A DNA stretch of 64,000 bases, taken from assembly GCA_965200155.1 (NCBI GenBank), contig CBDATR010000009.1, positions 32,001 to 96,000 of the forward strand, in the 5' to 3' direction. The position numbers and the translations under genes were made by a program. This document shows positions 30,508-64,000 of this stretch, in pieces. The notes under the pieces are model-generated. The model saw only the letters and a program-made list of their open reading frames with translations, searched no databases and was not told the origin of the DNA. Source of the stretch: Nitrosopumilaceae archaeon. GTDB lineage: Archaea; Thermoproteota; Nitrososphaeria; Nitrososphaerales; Nitrosopumilaceae. The stretch's first letter is position 1. The number at the start of each line of letters is the position of its first letter.

Positions 30508-30617
30508 GGCGACCATTGCCGGAATGCATCCGGGAATACATGACCCTACAACACGGAAAGAACTCACTCGAGCACCTTTCGGCGACCATTGCCGGAATGC
30601 ATCCGGGAATACATGAC
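30508..30617. repeat. 37-bp direct duplication flanking a unique 36-bp insert
   Basis: GGCGACCATTGCCGGAATGCATCCGGGAATACATGAC at 30508 and 30581. Confidence 0.92.
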
Positions 30618-32790: not shown

Positions 32791-32904
32791 AGCTACCATA
32801 CTGTAATCATTCCTCTCATTTTCTGCCATCAAGGACTCGTGGGGTGTCCAAAACGATGCATTTGCAGCTGCCATACTGTAATCATTCCTCTCATTTTCTG
32901 TCAT
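32791..32904. repeat. 35-39-bp direct duplication (1-2 mismatches) flanking a ~36-bp insert
   Basis: AGCT(A/G)CCATACTGTAATCATTCCTCTCATTTTCTG(C/T)CAT at 32791 and 32866. Confidence 0.88.
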
Positions 32905-33006
32905 GGTGACCAATGCGTTCTGTGTTATCTCGTAAGATTCATCCTGGACTAGGCTGGCCCTGTTCCCGATGCAGTGTTCCAGCGCGTCTGCCAGTGCACA
33001 CTCAAA

Positions 33007-33132: not shown

Positions 33133-33952
33133 TCATGATTCCAACCCGTTTGTTACATTATGACTGAGTATCAACAACTCCCTGGAATGCTTATTCCTGG
33201 ACATGCCATACTTCCACTGTGGGGATATGATGGCGTAATTATGGTACAGGTGGCGCACCTAGAATCGGATAAGATAGTAGACGGGCTGCCCGCAGATATG
33301 ATGGTGTAATTATGGTACAGGTGGCGCACCTCTGGTGAGTCATTGTACGATAGTATCCAATTATCATACCGTTCCAGTAATGTGGCAAGTCCCTCATGGT
33401 TAAAACCGGTTGTGGTTCTATACCCGTACAGGTTGGTCCTTATATGGGGGATCAAGATAGATGAAATCATCATTCCACATCGTTCCCATGGACTGGTTAA
33501 AATCTGCTAACTGAACGGTCATGTTGGAACAACGGAATTGTTCCAGTCTCTCTATGGATGACTCTGTGAATCGTGGATGACCCGGCGACATACCGCCTCT
33601 CATAGTACTGCCAGAGAATGAGCAACGATTTATGACAAAGAATATAGCCGCTCTGGTATATTTTGACGGGGAATGATACTGTTGTAATTGGTAGAAGCGT
33701 TCCTTCTCTAGCAGATAATACTCCCGTACTAGATTGGCCAGTCTCTTCGGGTCATGGAACAGGCACTGCCAGAATTCCACTAATGGTTCAAAGTTGTCAT
33801 AGCCGTGAATAGTGATACCATTCCGGGCGCATGAGATTTCGACTGCCCCCCATGAAAGGTGAGTGTAATATTTTGACATGATCAGGGATATATTGCATGA
33901 TTTTCTTGACACCGCGGGTCTTGCCGCCTGCGTATCTCAGGGGGGAAATCAT
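33133..33952 (-). pseudogene. Dam-like (D12 class) N6-adenine DNA methyltransferase pseudogene
   Basis: SPLRYAGGKTR, SPFMGG, FVINRCSFSG, FIYLDPPY, WILSYND; ATGA overlap with the REase start; frameshifts. Confidence 0.85.
33224..33331. repeat. 37-bp direct duplication (1 mismatch) flanking a unique 34-bp insert
   Basis: GATATGATGG(C/T)GTAATTATGGTACAGGTGGCGCACCT at 33224 and 33295. Confidence 0.92.
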
Positions 33953-36769: not shown

Positions 36770-38419
36770 ATGGCTATGGCCGTAAATGATATTATGATAC
36801 CGGTTCGGATGTTGACGCAGTATGTTTATTGTAACAGGTTGGGGTATATGGAATGGTTACAGGGTGAGTTTGAGACGTCAACAGACGTGGAACAGGGCAG
36901 ATTCGTGCACCGCAATGTGGATACCATATCCGGTACAAAGAAAATCCAGCAGGATGGGGAGATACACGCCACATCCGTTATGATATCGGATGTGAAACTT
37001 GGGCTGGTAGGAAAGCTGGACTTGCTTGAGATTGAGGGTCGCGCCGCGGTGCCAGTAGAATACAAAAAAGGCAAGGTACCCGATATCCAAGGAAATGTGT
37101 ACGATAGTACACTGGTGCAGGTTTGTGCGCAGGCACTACTCTTACGCGCAAACGGTTACAAGTGCACCGAGGGCGTGGTATATTATGTGGCGTCACGGCG
37201 CCGGGTTCGCGTGATTATAGATGACATACTGATAGCAAAGACTTTGCAGGCCATATGGGACCTAAAGGAGATGGTCAAGAAGAATATCATACCGCCACCT
37301 TTGGTGGATAGCCCAAAATGTCCGCGGTGTTCACTGGTGGGCATATGTCTTCCTGACGAGGTAAATCTGTTGTCAAACCAAAAGATAAAGGTAGACTCGG
37401 TGCGTCGTATGTATCCCATCAGGGCAGATGCAGTTCCAGTACATATACAGGAGCAGGGTGCATCTGTCTCTGTAACAGGAGATACGCTACAGGTGAAATC
37501 TACCGATGGGCAGAAACGGAAAATACGCATAATCGACGTGTTGGACTTGACTGTATATGGTAATGTTCAGATAACCACACAAGCACTACGTCGCTTGCTT
37601 GAGCGTGGCATATCCGTTTGCTATATGACATATGGAGGATGGTTCGTGGGCATGACCAACGCGGGTATGAACAGGAATATCGATTTGAGAATCCATCAGC
37701 ACAGGGTGTATGATGACAAGATTTCATCGCTAGATATATGCAAAAATATTGTTTATGGTAAGATAAGAAACTGCATGACGCTCTTGAGGCGCAACCACAA
37801 GTCTGATGCTACCAGGGTATTGGGAGAGATGTCGCAGATGGCAGATAAATCTCGGGGATGTAAAAAATACGAAACGCTCCTAGGTATAGAAGGAATGGCC
37901 GCCAGACTGTATTTTTCAAATTTTGCCGGTATGCTGAAAGACGATTCGGGGTTTGATTTTAAGCAGAGAAACCGGCGGCCGCCCAAGGATCCCGTTAATG
38001 CCATACTGTCGTTTTTGTATGCGTTGCTGGCCAGGCAAGCGACAGTTACCGTGATGGGGGTGGGGCTGGACCCATATATCGGGTATCTACATACGCCACA
38101 TCATGGCCGTCCATCACTGGCTCTGGATATGATGGAGGAGTTTCGCCCAATCATATGCGATAGTGTGTGTATTAGTATGATAAATAATTCCATGCTTGTC
38201 CCATCGGATTTTACAGATGCGGCCATGGGCGTATCGATGACGCAGAACGGACGGCGACGGGTTCTGGATGCCTTTGAAACACGCATGGACACTACCATAA
38301 AACACGAGATACTGGGTTACTCGGCAAGCTACAGACGCATACTGGAGACGCAGGTAAGGCTGCTGGCAAGGCGTGTTACAGGAGAGATACAAGCATACCC
38401 ACCTTTCAGGGTGAGGTAG
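36770..38419 (+). CDS. cas1: Cas4-Cas1 fusion (type I-G)
   Basis: Cas4: YCNR, GKLD..PVEYK, Q...Q, CPRCSL..C. Cas1: LLGIEG.AA..YF, RRPPKDPVNAILS..Y, GYLH, LALDMMEEFRP. Confidence 0.95.
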   Translation: MAMAVNDIMIPVRMLTQYVYCNRLGYMEWLQGEFETSTDVEQGRFVHRNVDTISGTKKIQQDGEIHATSVMISDVKLGLVGKLDLLEIEGRAAVPVEYKKGKVPDIQGNVYDSTLVQVCAQALLLRANGYKCTEGVVYYVASRRRVRVIIDDILIAKTLQAIWDLKEMVKKNIIPPPLVDSPKCPRCSLVGICLPDEVNLLSNQKIKVDSVRRMYPIRADAVPVHIQEQGASVSVTGDTLQVKSTDGQKRKIRIIDVLDLTVYGNVQITTQALRRLLERGISVCYMTYGGWFVGMTNAGMNRNIDLRIHQHRVYDDKISSLDICKNIVYGKIRNCMTLLRRNHKSDATRVLGEMSQMADKSRGCKKYETLLGIEGMAARLYFSNFAGMLKDDSGFDFKQRNRRPPKDPVNAILSFLYALLARQATVTVMGVGLDPYIGYLHTPHHGRPSLALDMMEEFRPIICDSVCISMINNSMLVPSDFTDAAMGVSMTQNGRRRVLDAFETRMDTTIKHEILGYSASYRRILETQVRLLARRVTGEIQAYPPFRVR

Positions 38420-38587
38420 GTTGCGAAGCCTGTATATGCCCTCCACAAACTTGGCGGCGCTACTGTGCCGGAACACCTTTCAGGGTGAGGTAGGTTGCGA
38501 AGCCTGTATATGCGACTCAGGAGATGCCCGGTATCATAATGGTGAGGTATCTTTCAGGGTGAGGTAGGTTGCGAAGCCTGTATATGC
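38403..38587. repeat. CRISPR-like mini-array at the cas1/cas2 junction: three 37-bp repeats, two unique 37-bp inserts
   Basis: CTTTCAGGGTGAGGTAGGTTGCGAAGCCTGTATATGC at 38403, 38477, 38551. Confidence 0.95.
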
Positions 38588-38844
38588 TATGTTATGATGT
38601 GCGCGATCCAAAAAGACTGAACAAAGTATACAAGATGATGAATGGGTATGGGGATCCGGTGCAGTACTCGGTGTTTTTGTGTGATTTAAGCGACACCGAA
38701 ATGGTATACATGAAGCGAGATTTGACAGAATTGCTGAATTTGAATGAAGACAGGGTAATTATTGTGAATACGGGAAAAGGTGATAAAATACAGACCATGG
38801 GCGAACCGCTAAAACACAGTCGTGAATCGGCAATCATAGTATAG
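38569..38844 (+). CDS. cas2: CRISPR-associated Cas2
   Basis: YDVRDPKRL..V..MM.GYG..VQYSVF.C.L, ED.V motifs. Confidence 0.95.
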   Translation: MRSLYMLCYDVRDPKRLNKVYKMMNGYGDPVQYSVFLCDLSDTEMVYMKRDLTELLNLNEDRVIIVNTGKGDKIQTMGEPLKHSRESAIIV

Positions 38845-39010: not shown

Positions 39011-42000
39011 ATTTCCGCAGCCTAACGGTTGCGGCCTCATTGAAGGGATGGTTATAGCCACGAATGCGGCGGGGACGTCCACGGATTTCCGCAGCCTAAC
39101 GGTTGCGGCCTCATTGAAGGGAGAATCGACACGGCTAACGGTTGAGATACTCTAAGATGCCACGATTTCCGCAGCCTAACGGTTGCGGCCTCATTGAAGG
39201 CAGCGTATACCCGCCCGCGACCGTCTCTCTAATTAGATTTCCGCAGCCTAACGGTTGCGGCCTCATTGAAGGAGACTCCCACGACATATGTCTGTACGAA
39301 CATGCGAAGATTTCCGCAGCCTAACGGTTGCGGCCTCATTGAAGGAATATATAAGATTCAATTGAATGTATTCTGCCTAATAGATTTCCGCAGCCTAACG
39401 GTTGCGGCCTCATTGAAGGAGTCAGCTGTAAGTCCTCTAATGAGCCTGTCATATTATTTCCGCAGCCTAACGGTTGCGGCCTCATTGAAGGGCGGTGATA
39501 ATAAAATAATAGGAGAAAAGGGACAGGATTTCCGCAGCCTAACGGTTGCGGCCTCATTGAAGGCAATTACACGCCTAAATTCATTTCGGACTTCCGTTAA
39601 ATTTCCGCAGCCTAACGGTTGCGGCCTCATTGAAGGCGACATGAACATTCCAAATCGTTTTTTGACGTCGCGTAATTTCCGCAGCCTAACGGTTGCGGCC
39701 TCATTGAAGGTGAGGGTTTGATGGGACAATTAGAACCGGGCACGTATTTCCGCAGCCTAACGGTTGCGGCCTCATTGAAGGAGGCTGTCTGGTGTATTTT
39801 TTGCGTGGTTTTACGCATTTCCGCAGCCTAACGGTTGCGGCCTCATTGAAGGGCCTGCCACCACTGTAATCTCTGCCTCATGATTGTAATTTCCGCAGCC
39901 TAACGGTTGCGGCCTCATTGAAGGCCGACACACGCGTGGACGCGGCGGATGTACCTGCAATTTCCGCAGCCTAACGGTTGCGGCCTCATTGAAGGATTGT
40001 GGCCGGTGTCGATCAAGGTACGCCGGATCCACATTTCCGCAGCCTAACGGTTGCGGCCTCATTGAAGGTACGGTATACGCGTATTTTGTCACCTGATTGA
40101 CATTTGATTTCCGCAGCCTAACGGTTGCGGCCTCATTGAAGGGACGGCATCCAAGAGCAGTGCATGTACGAGCCCGAACACATTTCCGCAGCCTAACGGT
40201 TGCGGCCTCATTGAAGGGACCGTCCCACCCACATTCCGTCCATATATGGGATTGCCATTTCCGCAGCCTAACGGTTGCGGCCTCATTGAAGGACCTGTTA
40301 GAGACGAGCTGGTCCATGAGCTCAATTGCTATTTCCGCAGCCTAACGGTTGCGGCCTCATTGAAGGTGACTTGAGTGTCTCCACCCTCTGCAGATATGCC
40401 TGATTTCCGCAGCCTAACGGTTGCGGCCTCATTGAAGGTGTATCAGTGGACGGCATGATCTATGTAATCAATAAAGATTTCCGCAGCCTAACGGTTGCGG
40501 CCTCATTGAAGGTAGAGGCGGCGTTCATTTGTTTGATTCGTCGACAGGTATTTCCGCAGCCTAACGGTTGCGGCCTCATTGAAGGGATGATGACTCGGAA
40601 GAATTAACAGTCCCGGGATACTTATTTCCGCAGCCTAACGGTTGCGGCCTCATTGAAGGTGATGCCTGGTATCCATGCGCGTACGACTTTGCCAGATTTC
40701 CGCAGCCTAACGGTTGCGGCCTCATTGAAGGGGCCCAGACTCATGGATTTTGCAGAATTCACGGCATTTCCGCAGCCTAACGGTTGCGGCCTCATTGAAG
40801 GTATTCAGTGCCCACATCCCGATATTCATTCAGCGGTGATTTCCGCAGCCTAACGGTTGCGGCCTCATTGAAGGCCGCCCTCCGCATTGACGCCACTCGG
40901 TGCCGGTGGGGATTTCCGCAGCCTAACGGTTGCGGCCTCATTGAAGGGGCGATATGCGACAAAAGAAACAACGACAATAGCAGATTTCCGCAGCCTAACG
41001 GTTGCGGCCTCATTGAAGGACATGTTGCATGTTCTATAATGTGCTTAAGTGCCATAATTTCCGCAGCCTAACGGTTGCGGCCTCATTGAAGGTGCCAAAA
41101 GGCATGCCAACGTGTGCTTTGTGTGACAATATTTCCGCAGCCTAACGGTTGCGGCCTCATTGAAGGAACGAGAGGGCGGAATTCCGAGTTGCGTCTTATT
41201 AAGATTTCCGCAGCCTAACGGTTGCGGCCTCATTGAAGGGCGTCTTGGATTTTCACCGCTCCTTATACCGACTAAATTTCCGCAGCCTAACGGTTGCGGC
41301 CTCATTGAAGGCAGCATCCCACTCCAACATAACCTGACCACTCTGTGATATTTCCGCAGCCTAACGGTTGCGGCCTCATTGAAGGATTGATCTCTGATTG
41401 ATTCGCACCCTTGTCGATCAGTATTTCCGCAGCCTAACGGTTGCGGCCTCATTGAAGGCTGAAAATCGGATCTTGACTTTGCCAACGCCATATGATTTCC
41501 GCAGCCTAACGGTTGCGGCCTCATTGAAGGAGTCGTAAATCCTTTAATTCCCGGATCCGTCCTCCATATTTCCGCAGCCTAACGGTTGCGGCCTCATTGA
41601 AGGATAATGCTGGAATGTAACAAGTCGTTGGGCGTTGAAATTTCCGCAGCCTAACGGTTGCGGCCTCATTGAAGGCCCGGTATCAGGATCCTCCATATAG
41701 GGCCCAATTTCATTTCCGCAGCCTAACGGTTGCGGCCTCATTGAAGGTGACTGCTTTTATGCTGGTTTCGCCGAGCATGACTGATTTCCGCAGCCTAACG
41801 GTTGCGGCCTCATTGAAGGGCGGCCGCCTCCGCGAATCCACCTGCCGCCGCGGGCCCATTTCCGCAGCCTAACGGTTGCGGCCTCATTGAAGGGCATTAG
41901 ATACGAGTGCGAGAACAATGGCAGGCACCACATTTCCGCAGCCTAACGGTTGCGGCCTCATTGAAGGGCACCCGATCTGATATATTCACACATAATGCAA

Positions 42001-45000
42001 TTATATTTCCGCAGCCTAACGGTTGCGGCCTCATTGAAGGTACGGAATGGATTTCCAACTGGCGCTCCAGCGCTACCAATTTCCGCAGCCTAACGGTTGC
42101 GGCCTCATTGAAGGAACCGTGGAATTATTCATTACATTCGCACTTTGGTATTTCCGCAGCCTAACGGTTGCGGCCTCATTGAAGGAACTACTTTGTGTAC
42201 GCCGCATATGTCATGCCATGTGATTTCCGCAGCCTAACGGTTGCGGCCTCATTGAAGGGTTATTTTGGCGATCCCACGTGATTCTGGCCCATATATTTCC
42301 GCAGCCTAACGGTTGCGGCCTCATTGAAGGTAGAAGGATCTGTCCAAGAAACGCCATATGGATATAATTTCCGCAGCCTAACGGTTGCGGCCTCATTGAA
42401 GGTAAAAGTGGAGTCTGGCAAGATCCCACTTTTTTCATATTTCCGCAGCCTAACGGTTGCGGCCTCATTGAAGGCTTACCCTCGCCGTGAACAAAGTCAC
42501 ATTCTATGCAAATTTCCGCAGCCTAACGGTTGCGGCCTCATTGAAGGTAACACATATATGGGGGTATTATGTTAAACATGTTACAATTTCCGCAGCCTAA
42601 CGGTTGCGGCCTCATTGAAGGAGGATGTGGCGACCTATATGTCGCTCACGGGACCTGATTTCCGCAGCCTAACGGTTGCGGCCTCATTGAAGGACGCAAA
42701 ATCCTTGACATGCACCGGCCATTATTCAAATTTCCGCAGCCTAACGGTTGCGGCCTCATTGAAGGACGTGAACAGTGTAATTTTGTAGAGCTTTTGAGCC
42801 AGATTTCCGCAGCCTAACGGTTGCGGCCTCATTGAAGGCGATCATATGACTCACTCCACCCCACCAAAAAATTAAGATTTCCGCAGCCTAACGGTTGCGG
42901 CCTCATTGAAGGAGGAGGACTGAGGGTAAGGACTGGCAGTCGCAATATAATTTCCGCAGCCTAACGGTTGCGGCCTCATTGAAGGAGATTCTCGCGATAT
43001 GCGATTTGTGATGCATGTACTATTTCCGCAGCCTAACGGTTGCGGCCTCATTGAAGGTAACCCTAATACTCCTCATGGTATTCGTCCTGCTACTACTATA
43101 TTTCCGCAGCCTAACGGTTGCGGCCTCATTGAAGGAAAGCTGCGGAATCCAATAGACCTTGTGCCACTGCCTGATTTCCGCAGCCTAACGGTTGCGGCCT
43201 CATTGAAGGCAAACCCTCGATTATCAATATCCTTTAAAAGAGGTGCATTTCCGCAGCCTAACGGTTGCGGCCTCATTGAAGGTGTGATCGATTTAAAATT
43301 TGCGACGGGTTTAGATATATTTCCGCAGCCTAACGGTTGCGGCCTCATTGAAGGCATGTATCTTTATTGCACGGAATCATTGTGTCGACTATTTCCGCAG
43401 CCTAACGGTTGCGGCCTCATTGAAGGGACTCATCACAAACATTAATCTATGACCCTGTGCATTGCGGCCCCGCACGTCAAACCATTTCCGCAGCCTAACG
43501 GTTGCGGCCTCATTGAAGGGACTCATCACAAACATTAATGGCGGAGGATGTCGGGATTTCCGCAGCCTAACGGTTGCGGCCTCATTGAAGGCGGTGGTTG
43601 TACTAGTTAGTAATGAATCTGCCTTGGATTTCCGCAGCCTAACGGTTGCGGCCTCATTGAAGGCTTACTGAGTAGACTCGATCTGCGATGTGGACGTAAC
43701 GATTTCCGCAGCCTAACGGTTGCGGCCTCATTGAAGGGAATTCGTAAATAATCGCGGCGTTAATAGCACAATAATTTCCGCAGCCTAACGGTTGCGGCCT
43801 CATTGAAGGACCCGAATTGCAAATCTTAATATGGCCGCCGAATGGAAATTTCCGCAGCCTAACGGTTGCGGCCTCATTGAAGGGTTAAACCAAATTCGTT
43901 TGTGCCGTCTCCGAATTCTCCATTTCCGCAGCCTAACGGTTGCGGCCTCATTGAAGGAACGAACGCTCCAAAAATTCCAATTCCGGCGTTATGTATTTCC
44001 GCAGCCTAACGGTTGCGGCCTCATTGAAGGGACCATGTTAATATTACCTGTCCACTCTGTATGACACATTTCCGCAGCCTAACGGTTGCGGCCTCATTGA
44101 AGGACTGAGTTCATGTGCTTTGATCTCATGTTTGTATTATTTCCGCAGCCTAACGGTTGCGGCCTCATTGAAGGTGTCGATACTAATATTGCCTGGGATG
44201 CTTACGAAATTATTTCCGCAGCCTAACGGTTGCGGCCTCATTGAAGGTTGTAATATTGATCGAGAGCCCGCGATTCATTATATCATTTCCGCAGCCTAAC
44301 GGTTGCGGCCTCATTGAAGGTGGCATCAGTTGCATCTTATTCACAGAGGTTGGGAGAATTTCCGCAGCCTAACGGTTGCGGCCTCATTGAAGGACATATC
44401 CATTCCATGGTCTTTGCTCATCATATTGGTATTTCCGCAGCCTAACGGTTGCGGCCTCATTGAAGGAGTCAATTAAAAGGAGATATTGAGCCGGCGTGGA
44501 ATTCATTTCCGCAGCCTAACGGTTGCGGCCTCATTGAAGGGGGGAATTTTCCATGTAAGTTATGGGTGCTAATAGACATTTCCGCAGCCTAACGGTTGCG
44601 GCCTCATTGAAGGTATACACTCACTGCATATAGAGTGGCTCCTGAGGAGATTTCCGCAGCCTAACGGTTGCGGCCTCATTGAAGGTAATGACCGGTTTAC
44701 TTATCATATTTTCACCATACTTATTTCCGCAGCCTAACGGTTGCGGCCTCATTGAAGGCACACGCGCGACTCTATAGGCATGACCCAGGCTTGAATTTCC
44801 GCAGCCTAACGGTTGCGGCCTCATTGAAGGTTTTGTCCATTTTGCTTGTTGCATACTCTAGTATACGATTTCCGCAGCCTAACGGTTGCGGCCTCATTGA
44901 AGGGACATTCTAAAAGTGACCGTACCGGGTCCACTTTTATTTCCGCAGCCTAACGGTTGCGGCCTCATTGAAGGGACAATGGCGTGACAGGCAGCGATCT

Positions 45001-48000
45001 CCGAGGCAAGATTTCCGCAGCCTAACGGTTGCGGCCTCATTGAAGGTGTTAGTAGTGTTTTAGCAAATCCATGGCTATTAAGATTTCCGCAGCCTAACGG
45101 TTGCGGCCTCATTGAAGGTAGCATAATCGTTTGTCATAAGCCATTTTTTTACGCGGATTTCCGCAGCCTAACGGTTGCGGCCTCATTGAAGGTGGACTAA
45201 TGACACACGGGCGTCCGTGGCCTGAAATATTTCCGCAGCCTAACGGTTGCGGCCTCATTGAAGGCTCCCCAATGCCGCCATTAATTTTGTCTCGCGGCGG
45301 AATTTCCGCAGCCTAACGGTTGCGGCCTCATTGAAGGACGGCAACAGGCCTTAATGACGGCACGACATATTGGATTTCCGCAGCCTAACGGTTGCGGCCT
45401 CATTGAAGGGGTGCATATTTTGTGGCCGACAGTCTGTATGGCGCTTATTTCCGCAGCCTAACGGTTGCGGCCTCATTGAAGGTGACTATTACTGCTTTTT
45501 TTGGGCTTCGCTTTTTGATTTCCGCAGCCTAACGGTTGCGGCCTCATTGAAGGTCCTGATAAAAATCGATCCTATATACTTTCCATGTGCGATTTCCGCA
45601 GCCTAACGGTTGCGGCCTCATTGAAGGACGAATGGAGGGCCTGAAAGGTAAACTGACTGGCGGGATTTCCGCAGCCTAACGGTTGCGGCCTCATTGAAGG
45701 GTCGAGTTCATGGAGATTACATCAAGCCGGGATATAATTTCCGCAGCCTAACGGTTGCGGCCTCATTGAAGGTACTATACACTCGAATCCTCGCACTCCT
45801 CATTCTACTATTTCCGCAGCCTAACGGTTGCGGCCTCATTGAAGGACTTAGTAAAAGTGACCGCCCAAGGTCCACTTTTTAATTTCCGCAGCCTAACGGT
45901 TGCGGCCTCATTGAAGGTGTGGTAAACCAAATTGGCGTGGGCGACGGCACGGATATTTCCGCAGCCTAACGGTTGCGGCCTCATTGAAGGCCCGCCCTGC
46001 ACCCCTTGCCACCATACCGCATACAAATTTCCGCAGCCTAACGGTTGCGGCCTCATTGAAGGGTTCGATGTTAGGACTGAGTCCACCGCAGGATATGGGA
46101 TTTCCGCAGCCTAACGGTTGCGGCCTCATTGAAGGACATTGTGGTTGGCAGGTCTAGTCGGCGCGGGAATGGCATTTCCGCAGCCTAACGGTTGCGGCCT
46201 CATTGAAGGTGAGATAGCAGTAGTAGGATCTTTAAGGATTTCTTTATTTCCGCAGCCTAACGGTTGCGGCCTCATTGAAGGAGGATGAGGCAAAAGCAGC
46301 AAGACGCCGCGATTATGTATTTCCGCAGCCTAACGGTTGCGGCCTCATTGAAGGTTCGAAGAGATGGATCTTACCAGAAAAAAACAATGGGCATTTCCGC
46401 AGCCTAACGGTTGCGGCCTCATTGAAGGTTGTGACCTGTCCATTACCGCTCTCTGCAATAGCAATTTCCGCAGCCTAACGGTTGCGGCCTCATTGAAGGG
46501 TGCCTATGTTGTTGCCGATGTATTTTTTTTGGCTCGAGATTTCCGCAGCCTAACGGTTGCGGCCTCATTGAAGGCGCCAGGTTCATAAAGCTCGCATTGA
46601 CCCGTGCCATATTTCCGCAGCCTAACGGTTGCGGCCTCATTGAAGGGATAATGTAACAGGTGAATTTTTGAGCGGGACAGATTATTTCCGCAGCCTAACG
46701 GTTGCGGCCTCATTGAAGGCAAATTCCATGTTGTATATTTCCCTCATGTCTTTTTTATTTCCGCAGCCTAACGGTTGCGGCCTCATTGAAGGGAACAAGC
46801 GGTCAAGTCACAATAAGTTGGAATGCCGATTTCCGCAGCCTAACGGTTGCGGCCTCATTGAAGGAATCGCCCATTGCTCATGAATGTACTTAGTTAATTC
46901 CTATTTCCGCAGCCTAACGGTTGCGGCCTCATTGAAGGTTCAATGTCCATACGGCATATGTCGGCGATTGATTTATTTCCGCAGCCTAACGGTTGCGGCC
47001 TCATTGAAGGAATCCGTAATGCTCATACGAGCCGTCAGTGTCGCTCATATTTCCGCAGCCTAACGGTTGCGGCCTCATTGAAGGTATAAAAACAACCATG
47101 CATACTGTAAAGCATGTAACAATTTCCGCAGCCTAACGGTTGCGGCCTCATTGAAGGGCCTCAACCACGTGCATCTCTTTCTTGGCGGCCTCAAATTTCC
47201 GCAGCCTAACGGTTGCGGCCTCATTGAAGGTGTTCAAGCCAAGCTTATGGTTGAATATTCAACGCCTTATTTCCGCAGCCTAACGGTTGCGGCCTCATTG
47301 AAGGTGCTTGTTGCATAGTATACATACGGCATTACGGTATAATTTCCGCAGCCTAACGGTTGCGGCCTCATTGAAGGGATCAAAGCCCTAAACCACAGGC
47401 CGCCGCGAGCATAATATTTCCGCAGCCTAACGGTTGCGGCCTCATTGAAGGTTGGCAAAATCATTGTATTATTCGTACCACCACCTATGATTTCCGCAGC
47501 CTAACGGTTGCGGCCTCATTGAAGGGTGTAAGGGCGCGCAATGCAACTGGTTGGGGTGCATAATTTCCGCAGCCTAACGGTTGCGGCCTCATTGAAGGGC
47601 GTGCGCCAGGGCTCGCGAATCGCATGGATCAATATTTCCGCAGCCTAACGGTTGCGGCCTCATTGAAGGCCTCGATATTGTTGGCCGTGTCTATAAGAGT
47701 ATTAAATTTCCGCAGCCTAACGGTTGCGGCCTCATTGAAGGTACTCAACCCAAAAGAAGTCCTCGGGTATCTGGTTCATATTTCCGCAGCCTAACGGTTG
47801 CGGCCTCATTGAAGGCGACGTTCCCTTGTATAAGACACATTTTGTTATACATATTTCCGCAGCCTAACGGTTGCGGCCTCATTGAAGGACCAAAAGTCGC
47901 TAATTACAAAAAATACGCATGGTGTATTTCCGCAGCCTAACGGTTGCGGCCTCATTGAAGGGATGGTATAGTCACGATTAATTACCTGTCCCTTTTCATT

Positions 48001-51000
48001 TCCGCAGCCTAACGGTTGCGGCCTCATTGAAGGTTAGTCGCTGTATATCTCGATATAATTTACCTAATGGGGATTTCCGCAGCCTAACGGTTGCGGCCTC
48101 ATTGAAGGCAGTTAGGAGCCATGCGGTATATTTGTGGTACAATAATTTCCGCAGCCTAACGGTTGCGGCCTCATTGAAGGAATTTGCTGGGCGTGCCTGC
48201 TCTTGCGACTCTATCTAATTTCCGCAGCCTAACGGTTGCGGCCTCATTGAAGGAGGACGCAGGCAGGGCGATATATGATGACAGCATATAATTTCCGCAG
48301 CCTAACGGTTGCGGCCTCATTGAAGGGTTGAGTGGTTTGATAATTTAGGATTGCATGGTGTATATTTCCGCAGCCTAACGGTTGCGGCCTCATTGAAGGG
48401 TGCGATGTATCTGGTTTGTTTTGGAGCGCTGTTATAAATTTCCGCAGCCTAACGGTTGCGGCCTCATTGAAGGCACATATCTGTAACCACATTGCTCGCA
48501 CTCAAAAGCAAATTTCCGCAGCCTAACGGTTGCGGCCTCATTGAAGGGCCGATTCATATTCCGTAAGAAGGTATAGCAGTGAAACATTTCCGCAGCCTAA
48601 CGGTTGCGGCCTCATTGAAGGATTACCCGCGGGAACAAAAACCAATGTGGCAATTAATTTCCGCAGCCTAACGGTTGCGGCCTCATTGAAGGTATTCCCC
48701 AAGGTGTCAATCGACGTAAAGAAAGTAGAATTTCCGCAGCCTAACGGTTGCGGCCTCATTGAAGGATGAATTACAGTTGGATCTTAATGAAACTGAACGT
48801 GAATTTCCGCAGCCTAACGGTTGCGGCCTCATTGAAGGATATTGTAATTAAGTATACATCTATATATGCCAGGCAATTTCCGCAGCCTAACGGTTGCGGC
48901 CTCATTGAAGGGCATCGGCCCAGGCACCACAGTCACATCTCTTTTTGATTTCCGCAGCCTAACGGTTGCGGCCTCATTGAAGGGTCTTTGTGGCGCGGCT
49001 CAAAACTAGTGATGTGTCCTATTTCCGCAGCCTAACGGTTGCGGCCTCATTGAAGGGGAACCAAAAGTCACGACGATATGTCGCACTTAGTATAATTTCC
49101 GCAGCCTAACGGTTGCGGCCTCATTGAAGGTATTTGCCGTGGTCACTGGCGGCAACATACTTACCCGATTTCCGCAGCCTAACGGTTGCGGCCTCATTGA
49201 AGGGCGGCGCGCCTGGCAATACAATCGGGGCCGCGGGCCTTGATTTCCGCAGCCTAACGGTTGCGGCCTCATTGAAGGGTGGAGCTGTTGGGGCTGCTAA
49301 CGGCGCCACAGGTGATTTCCGCAGCCTAACGGTTGCGGCCTCATTGAAGGCACATGGCGGCGGATCAATTGAGCAAATATATTCCAATTTCCGCAGCCTA
49401 ACGGTTGCGGCCTCATTGAAGGCAACCACCTGGTCGTCAAATATCACGGCCGCTGGCGATTTCCGCAGCCTAACGGTTGCGGCCTCATTGAAGGATTGAT
49501 CGCATGAATGAAGTGGCCGCTTATTGGCAAAATTTCCGCAGCCTAACGGTTGCGGCCTCATTGAAGGGATCTCGTGTTGTTTGTCTATTACCTCTGCCGA
49601 TACAAATTTCCGCAGCCTAACGGTTGCGGCCTCATTGAAGGTACGCGATTTGTTGCGTGGTTTTTTGACCAACACCCTATTTCCGCAGCCTAACGGTTGC
49701 GGCCTCATTGAAGGGACGTGGCCTCGGAAAAAAATGGCGTATGACAAAAGGCATTTCCGCAGCCTAACGGTTGCGGCCTCATTGAAGGTTTCCAGTATGT
49801 AATTCCACCGGGTGCGTTCTCGTAATTATTTCCGCAGCCTAACGGTTGCGGCCTCATTGAAGGTACTGTCCAACATCCACCACCGCCAATACTTCATAAT
49901 TTCCGCAGCCTAACGGTTGCGGCCTCATTGAAGGTTATCATCATGAGCATAATAGACGCGGCCAGTGTATTATTTCCGCAGCCTAACGGTTGCGGCCTCA
50001 TTGAAGGGTCTTTCCTTGCCATTGAATGGGATCTTTACATATACATTTCCGCAGCCTAACGGTTGCGGCCTCATTGAAGGGCCTCTATGAGTGCTTCTTT
50101 AAGGACTTTGTTAGTATAATTTCCGCAGCCTAACGGTTGCGGCCTCATTGAAGGTACCAAGTTGGGATGCTGCTTCGCGACTGCCTGATACAATTTCCGC
50201 AGCCTAACGGTTGCGGCCTCATTGAAGGTGGGTTATACCTACACCGCTCACATGCCTGCTCTATTATTTCCGCAGCCTAACGGTTGCGGCCTCATTGAAG
50301 GAGTAAGGCAGGGGGCGTGTGGCAAGGGGGGGTAATAGATTTCCGCAGCCTAACGGTTGCGGCCTCATTGAAGGTCTGGAGCACACAGTGCACTCAACCA
50401 AATGGCAAGATATTTCCGCAGCCTAACGGTTGCGGCCTCATTGAAGGTCTCAACAGCCGACGACGATCGCGAGGTATACGAGATTTCCGCAGCCTAACGG
50501 TTGCGGCCTCATTGAAGGTCAACCATTTCGGCCAATAAAATGTTCGATTTTTCAATTTCCGCAGCCTAACGGTTGCGGCCTCATTGAAGGGTAATGGTGT
50601 TGTTACCATTTCACCGGTATTTGGGTCATTTCCGCAGCCTAACGGTTGCGGCCTCATTGAAGGAATGTACCTTTGATTACGATACATTGCCCTATTTGTA
50701 TTTCCGCAGCCTAACGGTTGCGGCCTCATTGAAGGAATGTACCTTTGATTACGATACATTGCCCTATTTGTATTTCCGCAGCCTAACGGTTGCGGCCTCA
50801 TTGAAGGTAACGGTCACGCACACATTCGCGGCGGGGGAGGCCAATTTCCGCAGCCTAACGGTTGCGGCCTCATTGAAGGATCCCCATTATTGCTATGTTG
50901 TATTTGACTCGTATTATTTCCGCAGCCTAACGGTTGCGGCCTCATTGAAGGTTGTGATGAGGATATATTTCATGACACGATCCCGCCGATTTCCGCAGCC

Positions 51001-54000
51001 TAACGGTTGCGGCCTCATTGAAGGGTTTGAGGTTCGCTCAATTAACAGCGTAGGCACAGGGATTTCCGCAGCCTAACGGTTGCGGCCTCATTGAAGGGCA
51101 AATAGATGCATGTCATGCAACCAAACAATACATATTTCCGCAGCCTAACGGTTGCGGCCTCATTGAAGGTATATCTGCATATACGTCATGTGTCGACAGG
51201 AAGAATGATTTCCGCAGCCTAACGGTTGCGGCCTCATTGAAGGTTAGCAGTATTTGGGTTGGGCGTGCACATAACCATTACTGATTTCCGCAGCCTAACG
51301 GTTGCGGCCTCATTGAAGGCACGCATATTACTGCTACAGAGTTGGCAAAAGGAGCGATTTCCGCAGCCTAACGGTTGCGGCCTCATTGAAGGTTGGGCTT
51401 GGTGTGGATTCTGTCGTCGGCCTCAATATTTCCGCAGCCTAACGGTTGCGGCCTCATTGAAGGCGTGTGCGTATAATCGTACTCAAACTCACCAAGTATT
51501 AATTTCCGCAGCCTAACGGTTGCGGCCTCATTGAAGGGCCTCTTTCCGTCGCAATCACTTATCTGGTAAAAATATTTCCGCAGCCTAACGGTTGCGGCCT
51601 CATTGAAGGATGGCATAAGCCCAAGCACCACCGCGAATTACTTTAAATTTCCGCAGCCTAACGGTTGCGGCCTCATTGAAGGATTGTGCCCACAGAGACA
51701 GGTCAACGCAATTTGGTGATTTCCGCAGCCTAACGGTTGCGGCCTCATTGAAGGGGCAAAGGATCACAACAGGCATGGCAATTTGTGAGTAATATTTCCG
51801 CAGCCTAACGGTTGCGGCCTCATTGAAGGCATTAGACTTCCTCCACAATGGGGACTCTATATGCAATTTCCGCAGCCTAACGGTTGCGGCCTCATTGAAG
51901 GTCATCTTTCACGTCCTCAAGCAGGCCGCCTGTAAATATTTCCGCAGCCTAACGGTTGCGGCCTCATTGAAGGGGATTTTACAGCTTTTGGATCGATTGT
52001 GAGCGTGATATTTCCGCAGCCTAACGGTTGCGGCCTCATTGAAGGCGTGGTCACTGGCGGCAACATACTTACCCGATACGGGATTTCCGCAGCCTAACGG
52101 TTGCGGCCTCATTGAAGGCATTTTCCATACTCCATATGCACATGACATGTTATAATTTCCGCAGCCTAACGGTTGCGGCCTCATTGAAGGCTGAGTTCTG
52201 GCAATTTGCCGCCCTCTGCTATACCACATTTCCGCAGCCTAACGGTTGCGGCCTCATTGAAGGCGGGTGGTGCTGATATTGTGACTTGTGCCTGTGACAT
52301 TGATTTCCGCAGCCTAACGGTTGCGGCCTCATTGAAGGAGTGTAAATAATGAGAAATACATAGCACATATTGAGATTTCCGCAGCCTAACGGTTGCGGCC
52401 TCATTGAAGGGCCCAATACCGTGTCCGCACCTACCGTAACTTTACCGATTTCCGCAGCCTAACGGTTGCGGCCTCATTGAAGGAAGCGATTGTTTGTTTT
52501 CGTGCATTATCGAGTGCATTAATTTCCGCAGCCTAACGGTTGCGGCCTCATTGAAGGATGGGGACGGTCAGGTAACAATCAGGTGGAATGCCGATTTCCG
52601 CAGCCTAACGGTTGCGGCCTCATTGAAGGTGTTTGGTATTTAGCCAAATAGAAATATCCACATATTATTTCCGCAGCCTAACGGTTGCGGCCTCATTGAA
52701 GGTCATAACAGGACTAACTAATGGGGTTACGTATTGGTTATTTCCGCAGCCTAACGGTTGCGGCCTCATTGAAGGGAGACATCGTGACGGGTAACGACGG
52801 CGACGACATAGATTTCCGCAGCCTAACGGTTGCGGCCTCATTGAAGGCTGGTTTTCGACACAAAATCTGTACCTCTTCATTACTAATTTCCGCAGCCTAA
52901 CGGTTGCGGCCTCATTGAAGGAAATGACTTAAGTAGTCGCCCACACGTAAGCACGGAATTTCCGCAGCCTAACGGTTGCGGCCTCATTGAAGGCAATTCA
53001 TTAATTATATTACCATTCAATGGTATATAATTTCCGCAGCCTAACGGTTGCGGCCTCATTGAAGGGAATATACACCATAAAAGATATTAGTGTCGCATGT
53101 CAAATTTCCGCAGCCTAACGGTTGCGGCCTCATTGAAGGACGACTGCAGAATCGAGTTTAACAAATTTGGTGAGCTATTTCCGCAGCCTAACGGTTGCGG
53201 CCTCATTGAAGGATTGGTGAGTACGCGTTCGGTGCGAACAAGGCAGGATATTTCCGCAGCCTAACGGTTGCGGCCTCATTGAAGGTTGCTCTTCTCGTCT
53301 CTGGCGGTCTCTTCCTTCTAGATTTCCGCAGCCTAACGGTTGCGGCCTCATTGAAGGATTTGGGGGCAGTTCTTATAATCATGAGTCTCAAAGATTTCCG
53401 CAGCCTAACGGTTGCGGCCTCATTGAAGGAGATCTTAAAAAGTTCATTTTATCGAAAGCAGGTTCGAATTTCCGCAGCCTAACGGTTGCGGCCTCATTGA
53501 AGGTCCAATTTGCGGGTTAATTCCACATCACGCATGTTATTTCCGCAGCCTAACGGTTGCGGCCTCATTGAAGGCAACCACAAGTTAGTTAGCGGCTCCT
53601 TAGATATGACCGATTTCCGCAGCCTAACGGTTGCGGCCTCATTGAAGGGTTTCCTGGCGTTGTCTAGGGCGTTGTCAGAATGGGATTTCCGCAGCCTAAC
53701 GGTTGCGGCCTCATTGAAGGCACCAAAGATTAAACCTTGATAATTATGCGGGTGCCGATTTCCGCAGCCTAACGGTTGCGGCCTCATTGAAGGGTCGTCA
53801 TCATCGCCGCCGCCGTTACCGCCGTCATCAATTTCCGCAGCCTAACGGTTGCGGCCTCATTGAAGGCACAAAGCTACGGACTCGCTTGCCATGACAACTT
53901 GGGATTTCCGCAGCCTAACGGTTGCGGCCTCATTGAAGGTTTCACAACCCGTCAAAATCGCATGGATCAGGGGGGGGATTTCCGCAGCCTAACGGTTGCG

Positions 54001-57000
54001 GCCTCATTGAAGGCTGACAATTTTTCCAAAATCTCGTATACATCCTGGGTCATTTCCGCAGCCTAACGGTTGCGGCCTCATTGAAGGACCAACAGCGAGA
54101 CTAAAATTATCCAGAGCCTGATTAAAATTTCCGCAGCCTAACGGTTGCGGCCTCATTGAAGGCTGGTCTCACTGGTGCATTCCGGCTTACATATGGTGTA
54201 TTTCCGCAGCCTAACGGTTGCGGCCTCATTGAAGGCGACCCAGTGGCCGCATGCCGCGCATTTGTGCTTGCCAATTTCCGCAGCCTAACGGTTGCGGCCT
54301 CATTGAAGGCTTGGCATCACAGATATTGAGGATCAGCGAGTTGACATTTCCGCAGCCTAACGGTTGCGGCCTCATTGAAGGCCCATTTTGGCTTTGTTAC
54401 AGACCTCAAAGAAATATATTTCCGCAGCCTAACGGTTGCGGCCTCATTGAAGGCAGGGCTTGAATTTTAATTATCGCCGTATATATCGGATTTCCGCAGC
54501 CTAACGGTTGCGGCCTCATTGAAGGTAAATTGTATTCACCAATTTTGGCGCGGCATTACTATTTCCGCAGCCTAACGGTTGCGGCCTCATTGAAGGATTC
54601 GTTAAACCGGTGATTACTATCTCATTACTAGGAGATTTCCGCAGCCTAACGGTTGCGGCCTCATTGAAGGCAGGGGCGGAGGCATATAGGGTATATTGGC
54701 ATATTGATTTCCGCAGCCTAACGGTTGCGGCCTCATTGAAGGTATTAGACACGAATTTATCCGCCAAACAAATTAGGGAATTTCCGCAGCCTAACGGTTG
54801 CGGCCTCATTGAAGGGGCGTGAGAGCTCGCAATGCAACAGGATGGGGTGTATAATTTCCGCAGCCTAACGGTTGCGGCCTCATTGAAGGTACCAGTAAAC
54901 CCAGACAATGCATCCTTAAAGCTTTTTACATTTCCGCAGCCTAACGGTTGCGGCCTCATTGAAGGATTTTGTCATGCTGCAATGTCATGAGCCAGTCGGC
55001 GATTTCCGCAGCCTAACGGTTGCGGCCTCATTGAAGGTAATACCACATGGGCTCATATCGGTGCTAATAATGTCAATTTCCGCAGCCTAACGGTTGCGGC
55101 CTCATTGAAGGGTCTATTAATCTACTTCGTCGCGATGTGCTTGATCATTTCCGCAGCCTAACGGTTGCGGCCTCATTGAAGGCCGCCCCCGCCTATGATG
55201 TCAATTGTGACTGATCGATATTTCCGCAGCCTAACGGTTGCGGCCTCATTGAAGGTTACTAACTTCGATGCATTGAATCAAGAATCTAAGATATTTCCGC
55301 AGCCTAACGGTTGCGGCCTCATTGAAGGGGAAAATATCTCGCAAAAACAAAACACAAACAAGCTAATTTCCGCAGCCTAACGGTTGCGGCCTCATTGAAG
55401 GGGCAGAGATCACCGCAAAGGCAGGTATACAATTGTTGATTTCCGCAGCCTAACGGTTGCGGCCTCATTGAAGGAATTGATGTTAAAAAGGTGGATCCGG
55501 TTGACAATAATAATTTCCGCAGCCTAACGGTTGCGGCCTCATTGAAGGATAGACGAGACGGCTCGAGCCAAAAGAAATACATCGGATTTCCGCAGCCTAA
55601 CGGTTGCGGCCTCATTGAAGGCCTGATATACCGACAGGAATTGGATATGCACCTGGAAAATTTCCGCAGCCTAACGGTTGCGGCCTCATTGAAGGAGAGC
55701 CGAATTCGAGGACTTTGACATATTCAGCATGTATTTCCGCAGCCTAACGGTTGCGGCCTCATTGAAGGCTCCAATAATACTTGGTCTTTCCTTTACCCTC
55801 TCGGATTTCCGCAGCCTAACGGTTGCGGCCTCATTGAAGGAGATAACTTAGCATTGATGCGCGGCCATATGCGTGGATATTTCCGCAGCCTAACGGTTGC
55901 GGCCTCATTGAAGGGTCAATGCGGCCCGACCATATATCACCCGCCAGGTCATAATTTCCGCAGCCTAACGGTTGCGGCCTCATTGAAGGTCGAGGTCATC
56001 AAAAGTATCCCAAGGTGCTGTGGATATTTCCGCAGCCTAACGGTTGCGGCCTCATTGAAGGGTGCCGAATGCATATCCGCCTATGGTCCTCTCGCCGAGA
56101 TATTTCCGCAGCCTAACGGTTGCGGCCTCATTGAAGGCGCGGCAGCAGAATCTTTGCCAGCAGGATCCATGGAAATTTCCGCAGCCTAACGGTTGCGGCC
56201 TCATTGAAGGCAATCACATGGGATCCGGTAAATACCGCCACTGTATAATTTCCGCAGCCTAACGGTTGCGGCCTCATTGAAGGTCATGTAGCAAGGCAGG
56301 GAGGTGCATGGCAGGGTGGAATTTCCGCAGCCTAACGGTTGCGGCCTCATTGAAGGGCGGGGCCTCCCCCCGCTCATAATATGTGTATTCAAATTTCCGC
56401 AGCCTAACGGTTGCGGCCTCATTGAAGGATTGTTGAGGTAAATCCTCCAATGCACCAATTGCATATTTCCGCAGCCTAACGGTTGCGGCCTCATTGAAGG
56501 CTCTCTATACCACGACTTCCGTGCACAACTCGTCGATAAATTTCCGCAGCCTAACGGTTGCGGCCTCATTGAAGGGTATCTTAGAGCACCAAGGATGAGG
56601 TAACCAGGTCCAGATTTCCGCAGCCTAACGGTTGCGGCCTCATTGAAGGACCTGTCGAACTATCAAACACGCCAATACCATTACCAATTTCCGCAGCCTA
56701 ACGGTTGCGGCCTCATTGAAGGTTGTATATGAACTAAATAGCTTAACATATATCTGACATTTCCGCAGCCTAACGGTTGCGGCCTCATTGAAGGTTTGCA
56801 GGCCTCCATGATGATATTGGCCTGCGCTTGGGATTTCCGCAGCCTAACGGTTGCGGCCTCATTGAAGGTTCGGATCCGCCCAAAATCGCATGGATCAGGG
56901 GGGGGGGATTTCCGCAGCCTAACGGTTGCGGCCTCATTGAAGGAGTCGTGGGTATACCCCTTGAAGGCACGGCCGCGGCATTTCCGCAGCCTAACGGTTG

Positions 57001-60000: not shown

Positions 60001-60087
60001 CGGCCTCATTGAAGAATACCATTTCCACTTTGCATTTCGTGATATTACGATATTTCCGCAGCTTAATTGCTGCGGCCTCATTGAAGG
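39011..60087 (+). CRISPR. Type I-G CRISPR array, approximately 290 repeats
   Basis: 36-bp repeat ATTTCCGCAGCCTAACGGTTGCGGCCTCATTGAAGG with hairpin CCGCAGCC/GGTTGCGG and ATTGAAG 3' end; spacers mostly 35-39 bp; last two repeats degenerate. Count estimated from length divided by a ~72.5-bp period. Confidence 0.99.
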
Positions 60088-60102: not shown

Positions 60103-61058
60103 CTATATACGTGTGGTCTGGGAATTACTCCATATCACCTCAGCAGGGCCAAATGTACCATAACCACCCTCCTTTGTACGACGTATTGGTGCGCCCATTA
60201 TTTTTGTAATGCCCCAAGAATCAAACCATTTTGCTCTCTTTGATTTAAAATGAGTTCCAACGTTTCGTTTTTTGGAACGTTCACCCACAGCAGGTTTGTA
60301 AAAAGAATGTGCGAGGAGGGATCTTGTGACGTTGATAGTGGTAGGACGATCCCAGATTGGCCAAGAATAATAACCACATTTCCATTTACCAGAACAACCT
60401 TGCGTGAGTGTTCCCTTTTTACCTGGAAACACAGGATGCATGCTGAGTCCTAAAACTGCTAGTGCTTCAGGTCCAGGATTGATGCGTTTTTTTCTGTCAC
60501 TTGGGTTTTCTGCCATTAATGCATATATACGCTCATCAGCTATATCCCATTTCAGCGAACTCAACTCGCAGTTATCATACTTCCACGGACCACAGAGTCC
60601 AGTATGAATATCTGCATCAGTAACATGATTCAATATATTGCGGGCAATTTCCAGAAATTTCTGTTGGCCTGCCGAAAAGTAGAGATCAGAAGGTTTTGAC
60701 TTGCCAGATCTATCTAAACTTCCCTCTGCCAACAATGCACAAGCAAGCGATCCACCACCCTCTTTTTGCGCATCTTTCAGATATTTACGGATATCATCAG
60801 CCGCCAACTTCAACTCATCGCCCTTTTTGATGTTGGGCTTCATTGCTGGCGAGTTCTTCCATTCTTCAAATACTCGTTGCGCCTGTTTTACAACTTCATC
60901 AACAGTGAATTTCTGATCAATTGTTGCATATGGTATCACACCACCCGACCACCATAAACGGGGCTGGTCTTTCTGTCCAGCATATGCAACCTGTATTCCA
61001 AGGGCAGCCAAGAACCCTAGTGGATTTGTACCATCTAGACCTCTTAACTGTAATCCGT

Positions 61059-61062: not shown

Positions 61063-64000
<2,938 letters not shown>

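Follow-up and report, generated by a model that had tools for sequence, protein, structure and literature searches.

Probable off-target spacer integration by an archaeal Cas4/1-Cas2 integrase into its own operon

The cas4/1 and cas2 genes of a sponge-associated archaeon of the family Nitrosopumilaceae, part of a CRISPR-Cas locus that gene profiles assign to type I-G, are joined by a small array of repeats and inserts. The junction lies in a window of 64,000 nt, the whole stretch of DNA that was analysed (GenBank assembly GCA_965200155.1, contig CBDATR010000009.1, positions 32,001 to 96,000 of the forward strand), within a genome of 2.38 Mb in 51 contigs that is 87.6% complete. Positions below are those of the window unless a contig label (C10, C24 and so on) is given. 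A 37-nt unit made up of the end of cas4/1 and the start of cas2 is present three times, separated by two different 37-nt inserts, both of which derive from the organism's own chromosome. We suggest, with a probability of about 0.88, that this mini-array arose by two off-target (non-canonical) spacer integrations carried out by the organism's own Cas4/1-Cas2, a dependence that we read from the anatomy of the structure, and that it is tolerated and inert. Its parts are as follows.

38403..38439, + strand: unit copy 1 (R1), 37 nt, with the end of cas4/1, TAG, one base and a decoy cas2 start
38440..38476, + strand: insert 1 (S1), 37 nt, equal to C10:291114-291150 (-), 37/37
38477..38513, + strand: unit copy 2 (R2), 37 nt
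38514..38550, + strand: insert 2 (S2), 37 nt, equal to C24:421310-421346 (+), 36/37
38551..38587, + strand: unit copy 3 (R3), 37 nt, with a decoy cas1 end and TAG, one base and the real cas2 start

The three copies of the unit (CTTTCAGG...ATATGC) are 100% identical, with start-to-start spacings of 74 and 74, and no further copy was found in the 2.38-Mb genome when up to 9 mismatches were allowed. Each copy holds the codons for (P)FRVR of cas4/1, the TAG stop, one base and then TTG-CGA-AGC-CTG-TAT-ATG-C, which amounts to six cas2 codons. S1 and S2 are unrelated to one another and to the flanking sequence. The trinucleotide CAC stands directly upstream of both copy 1 and copy 2; before copy 2 it was assigned to S1, because the genomic source of S1 also ends in CAC. 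Despite the inserts, cas4/1 and cas2 are both full length. An initial annotation of this DNA had already described a junction unit in triplicate, two unique 37-nt inserts and intact genes, and our coordinates and profile matches agree with it on each of these points.

We envisage that staggered cuts were made one repeat-length apart across the 37 bp spanning the cas4/1 stop and the cas2 start, and that a spacer-sized fragment of the cell's own chromosome was joined at the cut site. Gap repair would then have duplicated the 37-bp target, and two such rounds would yield R-S1-R-S2-R, in which cas1 would end normally in the first copy and cas2 would start normally in the last. With the cas1 end and the cas2 start both contained in the duplicated unit, the insertions could be tolerated. 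That the integrase had acted twice in its own operon was proposed in the initial annotation, and the repeat-length duplication, the inserts of modal spacer length, their self sources and some 50 recurrences elsewhere in the genome now lend this proposal strong support; we likewise adopt its suggestion of an accident tolerated since the duplication spares both genes.

Both inserts could be traced. S1 is identical over 37/37 nt to C10:291114-291150 (-), with a mismatch on either boundary, and its source lies inside the gene for an archaeal CCA-adding enzyme (TIGR03671, 304.9 bits). S2 matches 36/37 nt of C24:421310-421346 (+), a stretch of the gene encoding a Cache-domain protein. Both source contigs are longer than 500 kb. 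It follows from the boundaries of S1 that the duplicated target is 37 nt long, one more than the true repeat. TTG flanks each source and, for S1, lies directly 5' of the protospacer when the insert is read on the + strand, which is the canonical orientation. The Geobacter I-U/I-G Cas4/1 system is reported to select a TTN protospacer-adjacent motif (PAM) and 36-bp spacers (PMC6547450), and in I-G adaptation the PAM end is described as being joined at the spacer side (PMC10504553). The initial annotation had raised the prospect of PAM-flanked targets, cas promoters among them; both inserts do have an own-genome source with TTG, and the targets are coding interiors, not promoters. Since both derive from distant chromosomal genes, the possibility that they are diverged copies of flanking sequence, which the same annotation named as a refutation, is excluded. 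Full-length own-genome matches were found for 2/2 junction inserts, compared with 0/288 spacers of the main CRISPR array downstream of cas2, where the only matches are 28 nt (spacer S58) and 17 nt (spacer S100). If the unit is not processed, this contrast is the expected outcome of selection against self-targeting.

The same geometry recurs across the genome. When the main array is set aside, exact direct repeats with a length of 30-45 nt form 53 pairs at spacings of 71-75, against 1 pair at 63-70 and 3 pairs at 76-81. Most frequent among the 71-75-spaced pairs are repeat lengths of 36 nt (17 pairs) and 37 nt (20 pairs), and these values correspond to the organism's own repeat plus spacer. With one low-complexity tandem on C2 dropped, the set of repeat-spacer-repeat (R-S-R) events numbers 50, at about 47 sites and in 42 target families, and their geometry is a 36-37-nt target duplication with a 35-39-nt insert. 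Examples are found at C10:83012, C10:288031, C24:237593, C24:500845, C34:116254, C43:106025 and C5:96434, and three sites, the cas junction among them, were struck twice. An own-genome source exists for 24/50 inserts (16 perfect, 8 with 1-3 mismatches) versus 0/288 array spacers (Fisher test, 3.5e-23). Thirteen of these 24 sources lie on contig C10, which makes up 22.7% of the genome (p 0.0008). One of the inserts, that of the event at C25:4760-4868, overlaps array spacer S58 (43210-43246) by 28 exact nt at an offset of 9, which indicates that the array and the off-target sites drew on the same pool of captured DNA. From this overlap, we take the S58 and C25 fragments to have been captured from the same foreign DNA.

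Some targets were used repeatedly. A family of repeats resembling insertion sequences (IS), which we call F1, has 66 loci, of which 51 are single-copy, that is, an empty site, and about 10 carry 1-3 inserts at spacings of 71-73, always at the same 36-nt site. This site sits within a frame of about 480 aa and, judging from its occupancy, is a strong integration hot spot. Family F2 is occupied at 5/85 loci. As for the sizes of other IS-like repeat families in this genome, F3 comprises 75 loci and F6 comprises 74. Within the window itself, the following structures of this kind, none of them assigned to a strand, were found.

30508..30617: R-S-R insertion, 37-nt duplication and 36-nt insert equal to C51:486 (36/36)
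32796..32906: older R-S-R insertion, spacing 75, copies diverged at their 3' ends, insert similar to C10:478559 (4 mismatches)
33225..33331: R-S-R insertion, likewise older, spacing 71, 36-nt copies that differ by one mismatch, source not found
12444..12839: neo-array, 36-nt unit and 35-nt insert, 71-nt period, 4.5 copies, 99% identical

The neo-array ends with a different 37-nt insert (12731; source C10:414241, 2 mismatches), its register shifted by 3 nt, and looks like a single target and insert amplified by recombination. Similar amplified units with identical inserts are present at C10:319716, C24:382929, C24:472912 and C31:2838. In some events the duplicated copies have diverged by up to 6 mismatches. 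The coexistence of amplified, perfect and diverged events indicates that the insertion process is both old and ongoing.

Three of the events (30508, 32796 and 33225) fall within 8 kb upstream of cas4/1, a hint of clustering near the cas operon. At distances of <=10 kb, a limit that was set post hoc, the exact events include 1 other than the junction against 0.2 expected (p 0.18), and the sensitive list includes 3 against 0.36 expected (p 0.006). Spacings divisible by three account for 26/50 events, compared with 35.7% expected from the period distribution of the array (p 0.013), and several frame-breaking events fall in the last few codons of long frames. Selection thus appears to have filtered the surviving events, and the cas junction fits such a filter because the duplication itself restores both gene ends. 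Two congeners with an orthologous system had 0 events in the first 400 kb of each, versus 11-12 per 400 kb here.

How far the targets resemble the true repeat is a separate matter. Aligned without gaps to the 36-nt repeat, the junction unit matches at 16/36 positions (2-5, 7, 17-23, 28, 31, 34 and 36), and our alignment reproduces the count of the initial annotation together with its two blocks, TTTC at 2-5 and GGTTGCG at 17-23. The description of the unit as a repeat mimic has weak support. Matches of 16/36 or better are reached at 37,495 of 4,756,564 genome positions (0.8%), which makes such likeness common, while the target families as a group, placed in register, average 12.8 of 36 repeat matches against 11.3 (sd 2.19) for a set of 20,000 random sites handled in the same way (42 families, z ~4.5), a modest increase; the junction, with 16 matches, ranks third among the 42. 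TTTC and GGTTGCG in register occur outside arrays at the junction and at one other site only, a rarity that is post hoc because the motif was defined from the junction itself. Enriched target positions are T2, T3, C5, C11, C12 and C26, and none of the GGTTGCG block (17-23) is among them; a 5' xTTTCC is also conserved in I-G repeats of other genomes. The junction therefore has the 5'-end feature that appears important for targeting, and the GGTTGCG block is no general determinant. Repeated strikes on the same sites (the junction, F1 and others) indicate that target choice is far from random, and the targeting rule is not simply repeat likeness.

The junction is also present in sequencing data. 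Eight public runs from two studies contain the stretch, none of them recorded as RNA and the runs of one study being labelled sponge metagenome, and the contigs of four runs were examined. In runs X1 and X5, separate k=31 Logan contigs extend over upstream-R1, R1/S1, S1/R2, R2-S2-R3 and R3-cas2. Depths in X1 are 41.1 at R1/S1, 38.6 at S1/R2, 47.7 over R2-S2-R3 and 48.2 at R3/cas2, versus 50.1 in the flank; the respective values in X5 are 64.5, 79.4, 80.5 and 69.8, versus 67.7. Run X8 contributes one 151-nt record over 38414-38564, with no differences. An assembly artefact, the other refutation named in the initial annotation, is therefore contradicted by junction contigs from two studies at flank-like depth, one of which may be the source of the assembly.

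It is probable that S1, on the cas1 side, is younger than S2. This agrees with the perfect match of S1 against the one mismatch of S2 and with growth at the upstream end, which is also how a normal array gains spacers. S1 may even be polymorphic and still segregating in the population, which we put forward as a lead only. The upstream contig of run X2 ends at 38432, versus 38429 in X1 and X5, as expected in a k=31 graph if the CAC-preceded copy 2 (S1-R2) is absent. No contig of X2 is listed over R1/S1 or S1/R2, but missing cover is uninformative here, since the sampled words of X2-X4 are fewer than those of X1 (0.79 versus 0.92). An exact search of JGI metagenome contigs with the 37-nt unit gave no match.

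As an RNA, the unit differs from the true repeat. It folds at -6.3 kcal/mol (z 0.12), against -14.3 kcal/mol (z -2.85), and the 8-bp hairpin of the repeat is absent. Of the last 8 repeat positions, which would form the handle of the CRISPR RNA (crRNA), it has 3 in common with the repeat, and it gives no Rfam CRISPR-DR match at E<=1, while the true array repeats match CRISPR-DR16 weakly on the + strand. We infer that the unit is integrase-competent and crRNA-incompetent, and that it is not processed. Having neither hairpin nor 3' handle, it would allow its self-matching inserts to be carried without autoimmunity. The presence of the structure at full depth in two samples likewise argues for inertness, because a processed and loaded S1 would guide a DNA-targeting effector to its perfect match in the CCA-adding enzyme gene, where TTG flanks the site.

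Related loci place the structure in this lineage. The nearest Cas4/1 relatives come from metagenome-assembled genomes of Nitrosopumilus/Nitrosopumilaceae. Five orthologous loci from the same genus or family (58-66% Cas4/1 identity) have stop-to-start gaps of 1-10 nt, and 5/5 are without an insert. Together with 79/80 loci from a genome collection (one had no cas2 in the fetched stretch), 84 Cas4/1 loci were compared; the cas1-cas2 gap has a median of 5 nt and is <=15 nt in 64 loci and >15 nt in 20. The initial annotation had pointed to related I-G junctions as a place where further inserts might be seen, but none of the 84 has a mini-array of this kind: a stop/start repeat with spacer-sized inserts occurs in 0/5 close and 0/79 more distant loci. 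The structure therefore appears to be lineage-specific and recent rather than a conserved element. The codons that give the unit its likeness to the repeat (CCT-TTC for Pro-Phe and TAG-G-TTG-CGA for the stop/start) are not common to the relatives.

Direct repeats are present in 3 of the 20 long gaps, those of loci L049, L061 and L066. L049:2632-2741 (gap 211 nt) has 38 nt twice at a spacing of 71, and L061:2350-2458 (gap 287 nt) has 35 nt twice at a spacing of 74, with diverged copies of a 35-39-nt unit in each. The intervening sequence of these two has no other copy in the respective genomes. We do not claim them as integrase events. At L066:4239-4413, in a metagenome-assembled genome of Thermoguttaceae, a second copy of the 3' end of cas4/1 with its stop codon (64 nt, 94% identical) lies 95 nt downstream, in a gap of 199 nt with 30-nt sub-repeats at a spacing of 36; these sizes do not fit spacer integration.

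Several other explanations have to be weighed against two off-target integrations. The initial annotation had also proposed a self-limiting feedback or a regulatory mini-array. On such a reading, the inserts might act as CreA/CreR-like guides on cca and the Cache-domain gene, or the decoy starts might lower Cas2 output as an attenuator. Regulators of the CreTA/CreR type keep the crRNA-handle part of the repeat and pair only partly with a promoter. Like them, the junction is a repeat-like and spacer-like element among cas genes; it lies inside the cas operon, where it is presumably co-transcribed, the 37-nt target of S1 is perfect and has TTG in the correct place, and both inserts stand at full depth in X1 and X5. 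The decoy cas2 starts in the unit copies would also give rise to one further frame.

38421..38567, + strand: 48-codon open frame, putatively translated, from the cas2-type TTG of R1 to the TAG of R3; no Pfam family

This frame joins R1 to R3 and stops where cas1 normally ends, one base before the cas2 TTG, as in the ancestral stop-1 nt-start arrangement; with a single insert, the corresponding frame would have 14 or 41 codons and end elsewhere. It may help to keep Cas2 translation coupled to upstream translation, but may equally be due to chance, the odds of an open frame of this length being, with unbiased codons, about 1 in 10 by hand estimate. We consider a selected function highly improbable. 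Unlike CreTA/CreR, the unit has neither handle nor hairpin, nor an Rfam match, and the inserts are full-length copies of coding interiors rather than partial matches to promoters; we therefore do not take it for a crRNA-like regulator, as the defining repeat features were tested for and are absent. A processed S1 guide would, moreover, hit a presumably essential gene. The structure is absent from the 84 other Cas4/1 loci, the 5 close ones included, and belongs to a set of some 50 equivalent insertions at unrelated sites, many within IS copies; three identical copies with a perfect S1 speak for recent events rather than conservation.

An origin outside CRISPR, through a transposase, template switching during repair, or an artefact of assembly or binning, is in our estimate slightly less probable still. 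Most self-derived inserts are without a PAM, the genome is rich in IS-like repeats (families of 66-85 copies), and the assembly is 87.6% complete and in 51 contigs, all of which would suit such an origin. Against it, the 36-37-nt duplications and 35-39-nt inserts coincide only with the lengths of the organism's own repeats and spacers, and the histogram of spacings stays flat away from 71-75. The inserts are mutually different and have no transposon ends, one of them overlaps a bona fide array spacer, independent contigs from two studies reproduce the junctions, and the two congeners have no such events in the 400 kb sampled from each. Casposon integration by a casposase has the chemistry of a Cas1-family integrase, with target-site duplication, but no casposon takes part here, where a single Cas1 is fused to Cas4 in an I-G locus and the duplication has CRISPR repeat length. 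Least probable of all, in our view, is a nascent functional array, a neo-CRISPR locus in the strict sense that would be transcribed and processed like the main array. The regular R-S-R-S-R order, the canonical sizes and a polarity that fits upstream-side addition (S1 perfect, S2 with 1 mismatch) are what such an array would display. All points against a selected function apply to it too; in addition, S1 would target the organism itself with a correct PAM, which should kill if interference works, and the unit has only 16/36 repeat identity.

Other observations weigh against off-target integration by Cas4/1-Cas2 itself. The tie between the events and this integrase is purely one of anatomy. The TTG of the S2 source is on the opposite strand, so that S2 is reversed relative to S1, and the two TTGs could be chance: a TTN at -3..-1, on either side, accompanies about 6/24 self-derived inserts, compared with about 3 expected, which is not significant, and the other 22 of these inserts give no PAM signal. 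Among the 24 events whose duplications are bounded by a known source, most have 36 nt and about 4-5 have 37 nt, and the junction belongs to the latter. The likeness of the targets to the repeat is weak. Interference might be inactive, which would weaken the contrast with the 0/288 self-matching array spacers, as no match to the large subunit Cas8g/Csx17 (TIGR04113) was found in the genome; the model, however, matched just 1/5 relatives with the same Cas4/1, leaving 4/5 equally unmatched, and 0/14 control genomes. Finally, k=31 contigs give junctions rather than the number of inserts per molecule, and read support covers the cas junction, the other 50 or so events being known from the assembly.

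Beyond the junction, we think it reasonably probable that Cas4/1-Cas2 is a chronic, genome-wide insertional mutagen in this archaeon. Over evolutionary time it would have struck >50 chromosomal sites, leaving 36-37-bp duplications, hot spots, clustering near its own operon, amplified neo-arrays and an excess of in-frame events. The unprocessed sites would form an unselected record of capture, about half of it self DNA that for the most part has no PAM and shows a bias towards one 540-kb contig. Autoimmunity would have erased such a record from the real array, and the junction would be the latest, possibly polymorphic, addition to it.

Off-target integration has so far been shown mainly with over-produced E. 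coli Cas1-Cas2. In 2018, Nivala, Shipman and Church described non-canonical spacer integration that gives rise to neo-CRISPR loci when Cas1-Cas2 of E. coli type I-E is over-produced (as cited in 10.1101/148544, PMC7054753 and PMC6698737), and, according to the same citing papers, the evidence from two other species was circumstantial only. As in that work, so far as the citing papers describe it, a spacer-sized fragment is found here outside the array, a repeat-length target is duplicated to give R-S-R, and reuse of the site can build a small array. With this defining anatomy present, we regard the junction as a natural case of non-canonical spacer integration. It differs from the E. coli case in being natural, in involving an archaeal type I-G Cas4/1 fusion and its own operon, in its self-derived inserts and in the approximately 50 further events.

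Cas1-Cas2 of Pyrococcus furiosus is reported to integrate in vitro at off-target sites with repeat-like features (PMC6698737), and the targets here are likewise modestly more repeat-like in register than random sites. Unlike those of the in vitro plasmid assay in that report, the events here are fixed in a genome and their likeness is weak (mean 12.8 of 36). What is described of I-G/I-U Cas4/1-Cas2 adaptation (PMC6547450, PMC10504553) fits in the fused integrase family, the spacers of about 36 bp and TTN, and S1 obeys the PAM-end rule. Canonical I-G/I-U integration takes place at the leader-repeat junction, whereas the site here joins two coding sequences and has no leader, S2 has the inverse orientation and TTN is missing from most inserts genome-wide.

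New in the present case are the site, the stop/start junction of the integrase's own genes, the proof of self-DNA inserts and the scale (some 50 events across 2.4 Mb, hot spots among their targets and indications of selection); our literature search found no report of off-target integration at such genomic scale. This natural genome offers a dated series of events, from diverged to perfect copies, two of them in the integrase's own operon. From its catalogue of natural target sites, the sequence rules of a Cas4/1-Cas2 integrase should be derivable. The sites also give a direct view of unselected prespacer choice, that is, self versus foreign DNA, PAM or none, and source hot spots. They are evidence for a mutational cost of adaptation that is filtered by selection, as the events that survive lie at gene ends, in IS copies or in frame. 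Moreover, they illustrate concretely how new arrays might be seeded, and they warn annotators that short mini-arrays with odd repeats can be integrase scars rather than functional loci.

The remaining features of the locus are listed here.

36770..38419, + strand: cas4/cas1 fusion gene for Cas4g/Cas1g (549 aa), with its final codons and the TAG inside unit copy 1
38569..38844, + strand: cas2, 91 aa, TTG start at 38569, alternative ATG at 38584; Pfam CRISPR_Cas2 (PF09827) 6.1e-18, TIGR01573
38845..39010, + strand: leader of the main array, 166 nt, between cas2 and the first repeat
39011..60087, + strand: main CRISPR array of type I-G, 21 kb, with 288 spacers between 289 repeats of 36 nt
60103..61062, - strand: Cas3-extension protein, type I-G, by NCBIfam profile search
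61059..63836, - strand: Cas3g, followed by csb2 and csb1 past the window end

The fusion protein has both Pfam domains (Cas_Cas1 3.4e-91, Cas_Cas4 9.9e-19) and matches NCBIfam NF049935 at full length (model positions 1-546 of 546) with 710.7 bits, above the cut-off of 560. Its C-terminus, PPFRVR*, agrees with those of the relatives, and residues D84, E97 and K99 and three Cys are invariant in a 6-sequence alignment. It is encoded by the single Cas1 gene of the whole genome, which is full length. The start of cas2 is most likely the TTG at 38569 rather than only the ATG at 38584, because the predicted N-terminus then aligns with that of five relatives (M-R-N-R-Y-[IV]-V-C-Y-D-V, 1-10 bases past the cas1 stop). 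Cas3g, Csb2 (Cas5/6) and Csb1 (Cas7g) were recognised by TIGR02621 (709.1 bits), TIGR02165 (284.5), TIGR02570 (72.8) and NF049934 (276.6). Upstream of csb1 (C9:98700-100400), where the large-subunit gene would be expected, two IS5-like transposase fragments are found.

Spacer lengths in the main array range from 34 to 57 nt with a mode of 37: 34 (1 spacer), 35 (16), 36 (85), 37 (101), 38 (63), 39 (15), 40 (4), 42 (1), 44 (1) and 57 (1). The period ranges over 70-75, which includes the 74 of the junction. Only two repeats are degenerate, both distal (59980 and 60052), and since these sit at the far end of the array, the leader is the stretch that adjoins cas2. No protospacer was found in a phage collection for array positions 39011-46900, nor for three array spacers searched exactly in IMG/VR. 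A search of 40 relatives with positions 39011-58900 found none, bar one match of 85-87%: the 45 nt at 57525-57569 (a spacer and its edge) recur at that identity in three genomes from other genera within the family, and not in the organism's own genome.

Two further repeats deserve mention. A solitary, near-perfect CRISPR repeat (33/36) lies at C43:128228-128263 (-), with a leader-like end ahead of it (TTGTTAACCTGCGC.GT, together with an upstream block in common with the window leader). It adjoins IS-like sequence near the contig end and could be what is left of a second array, or else an orphan leader-repeat. Within the window, positions 19848-20168 hold a 41-nt tandem repeat of 7.8 copies that are 98% identical.

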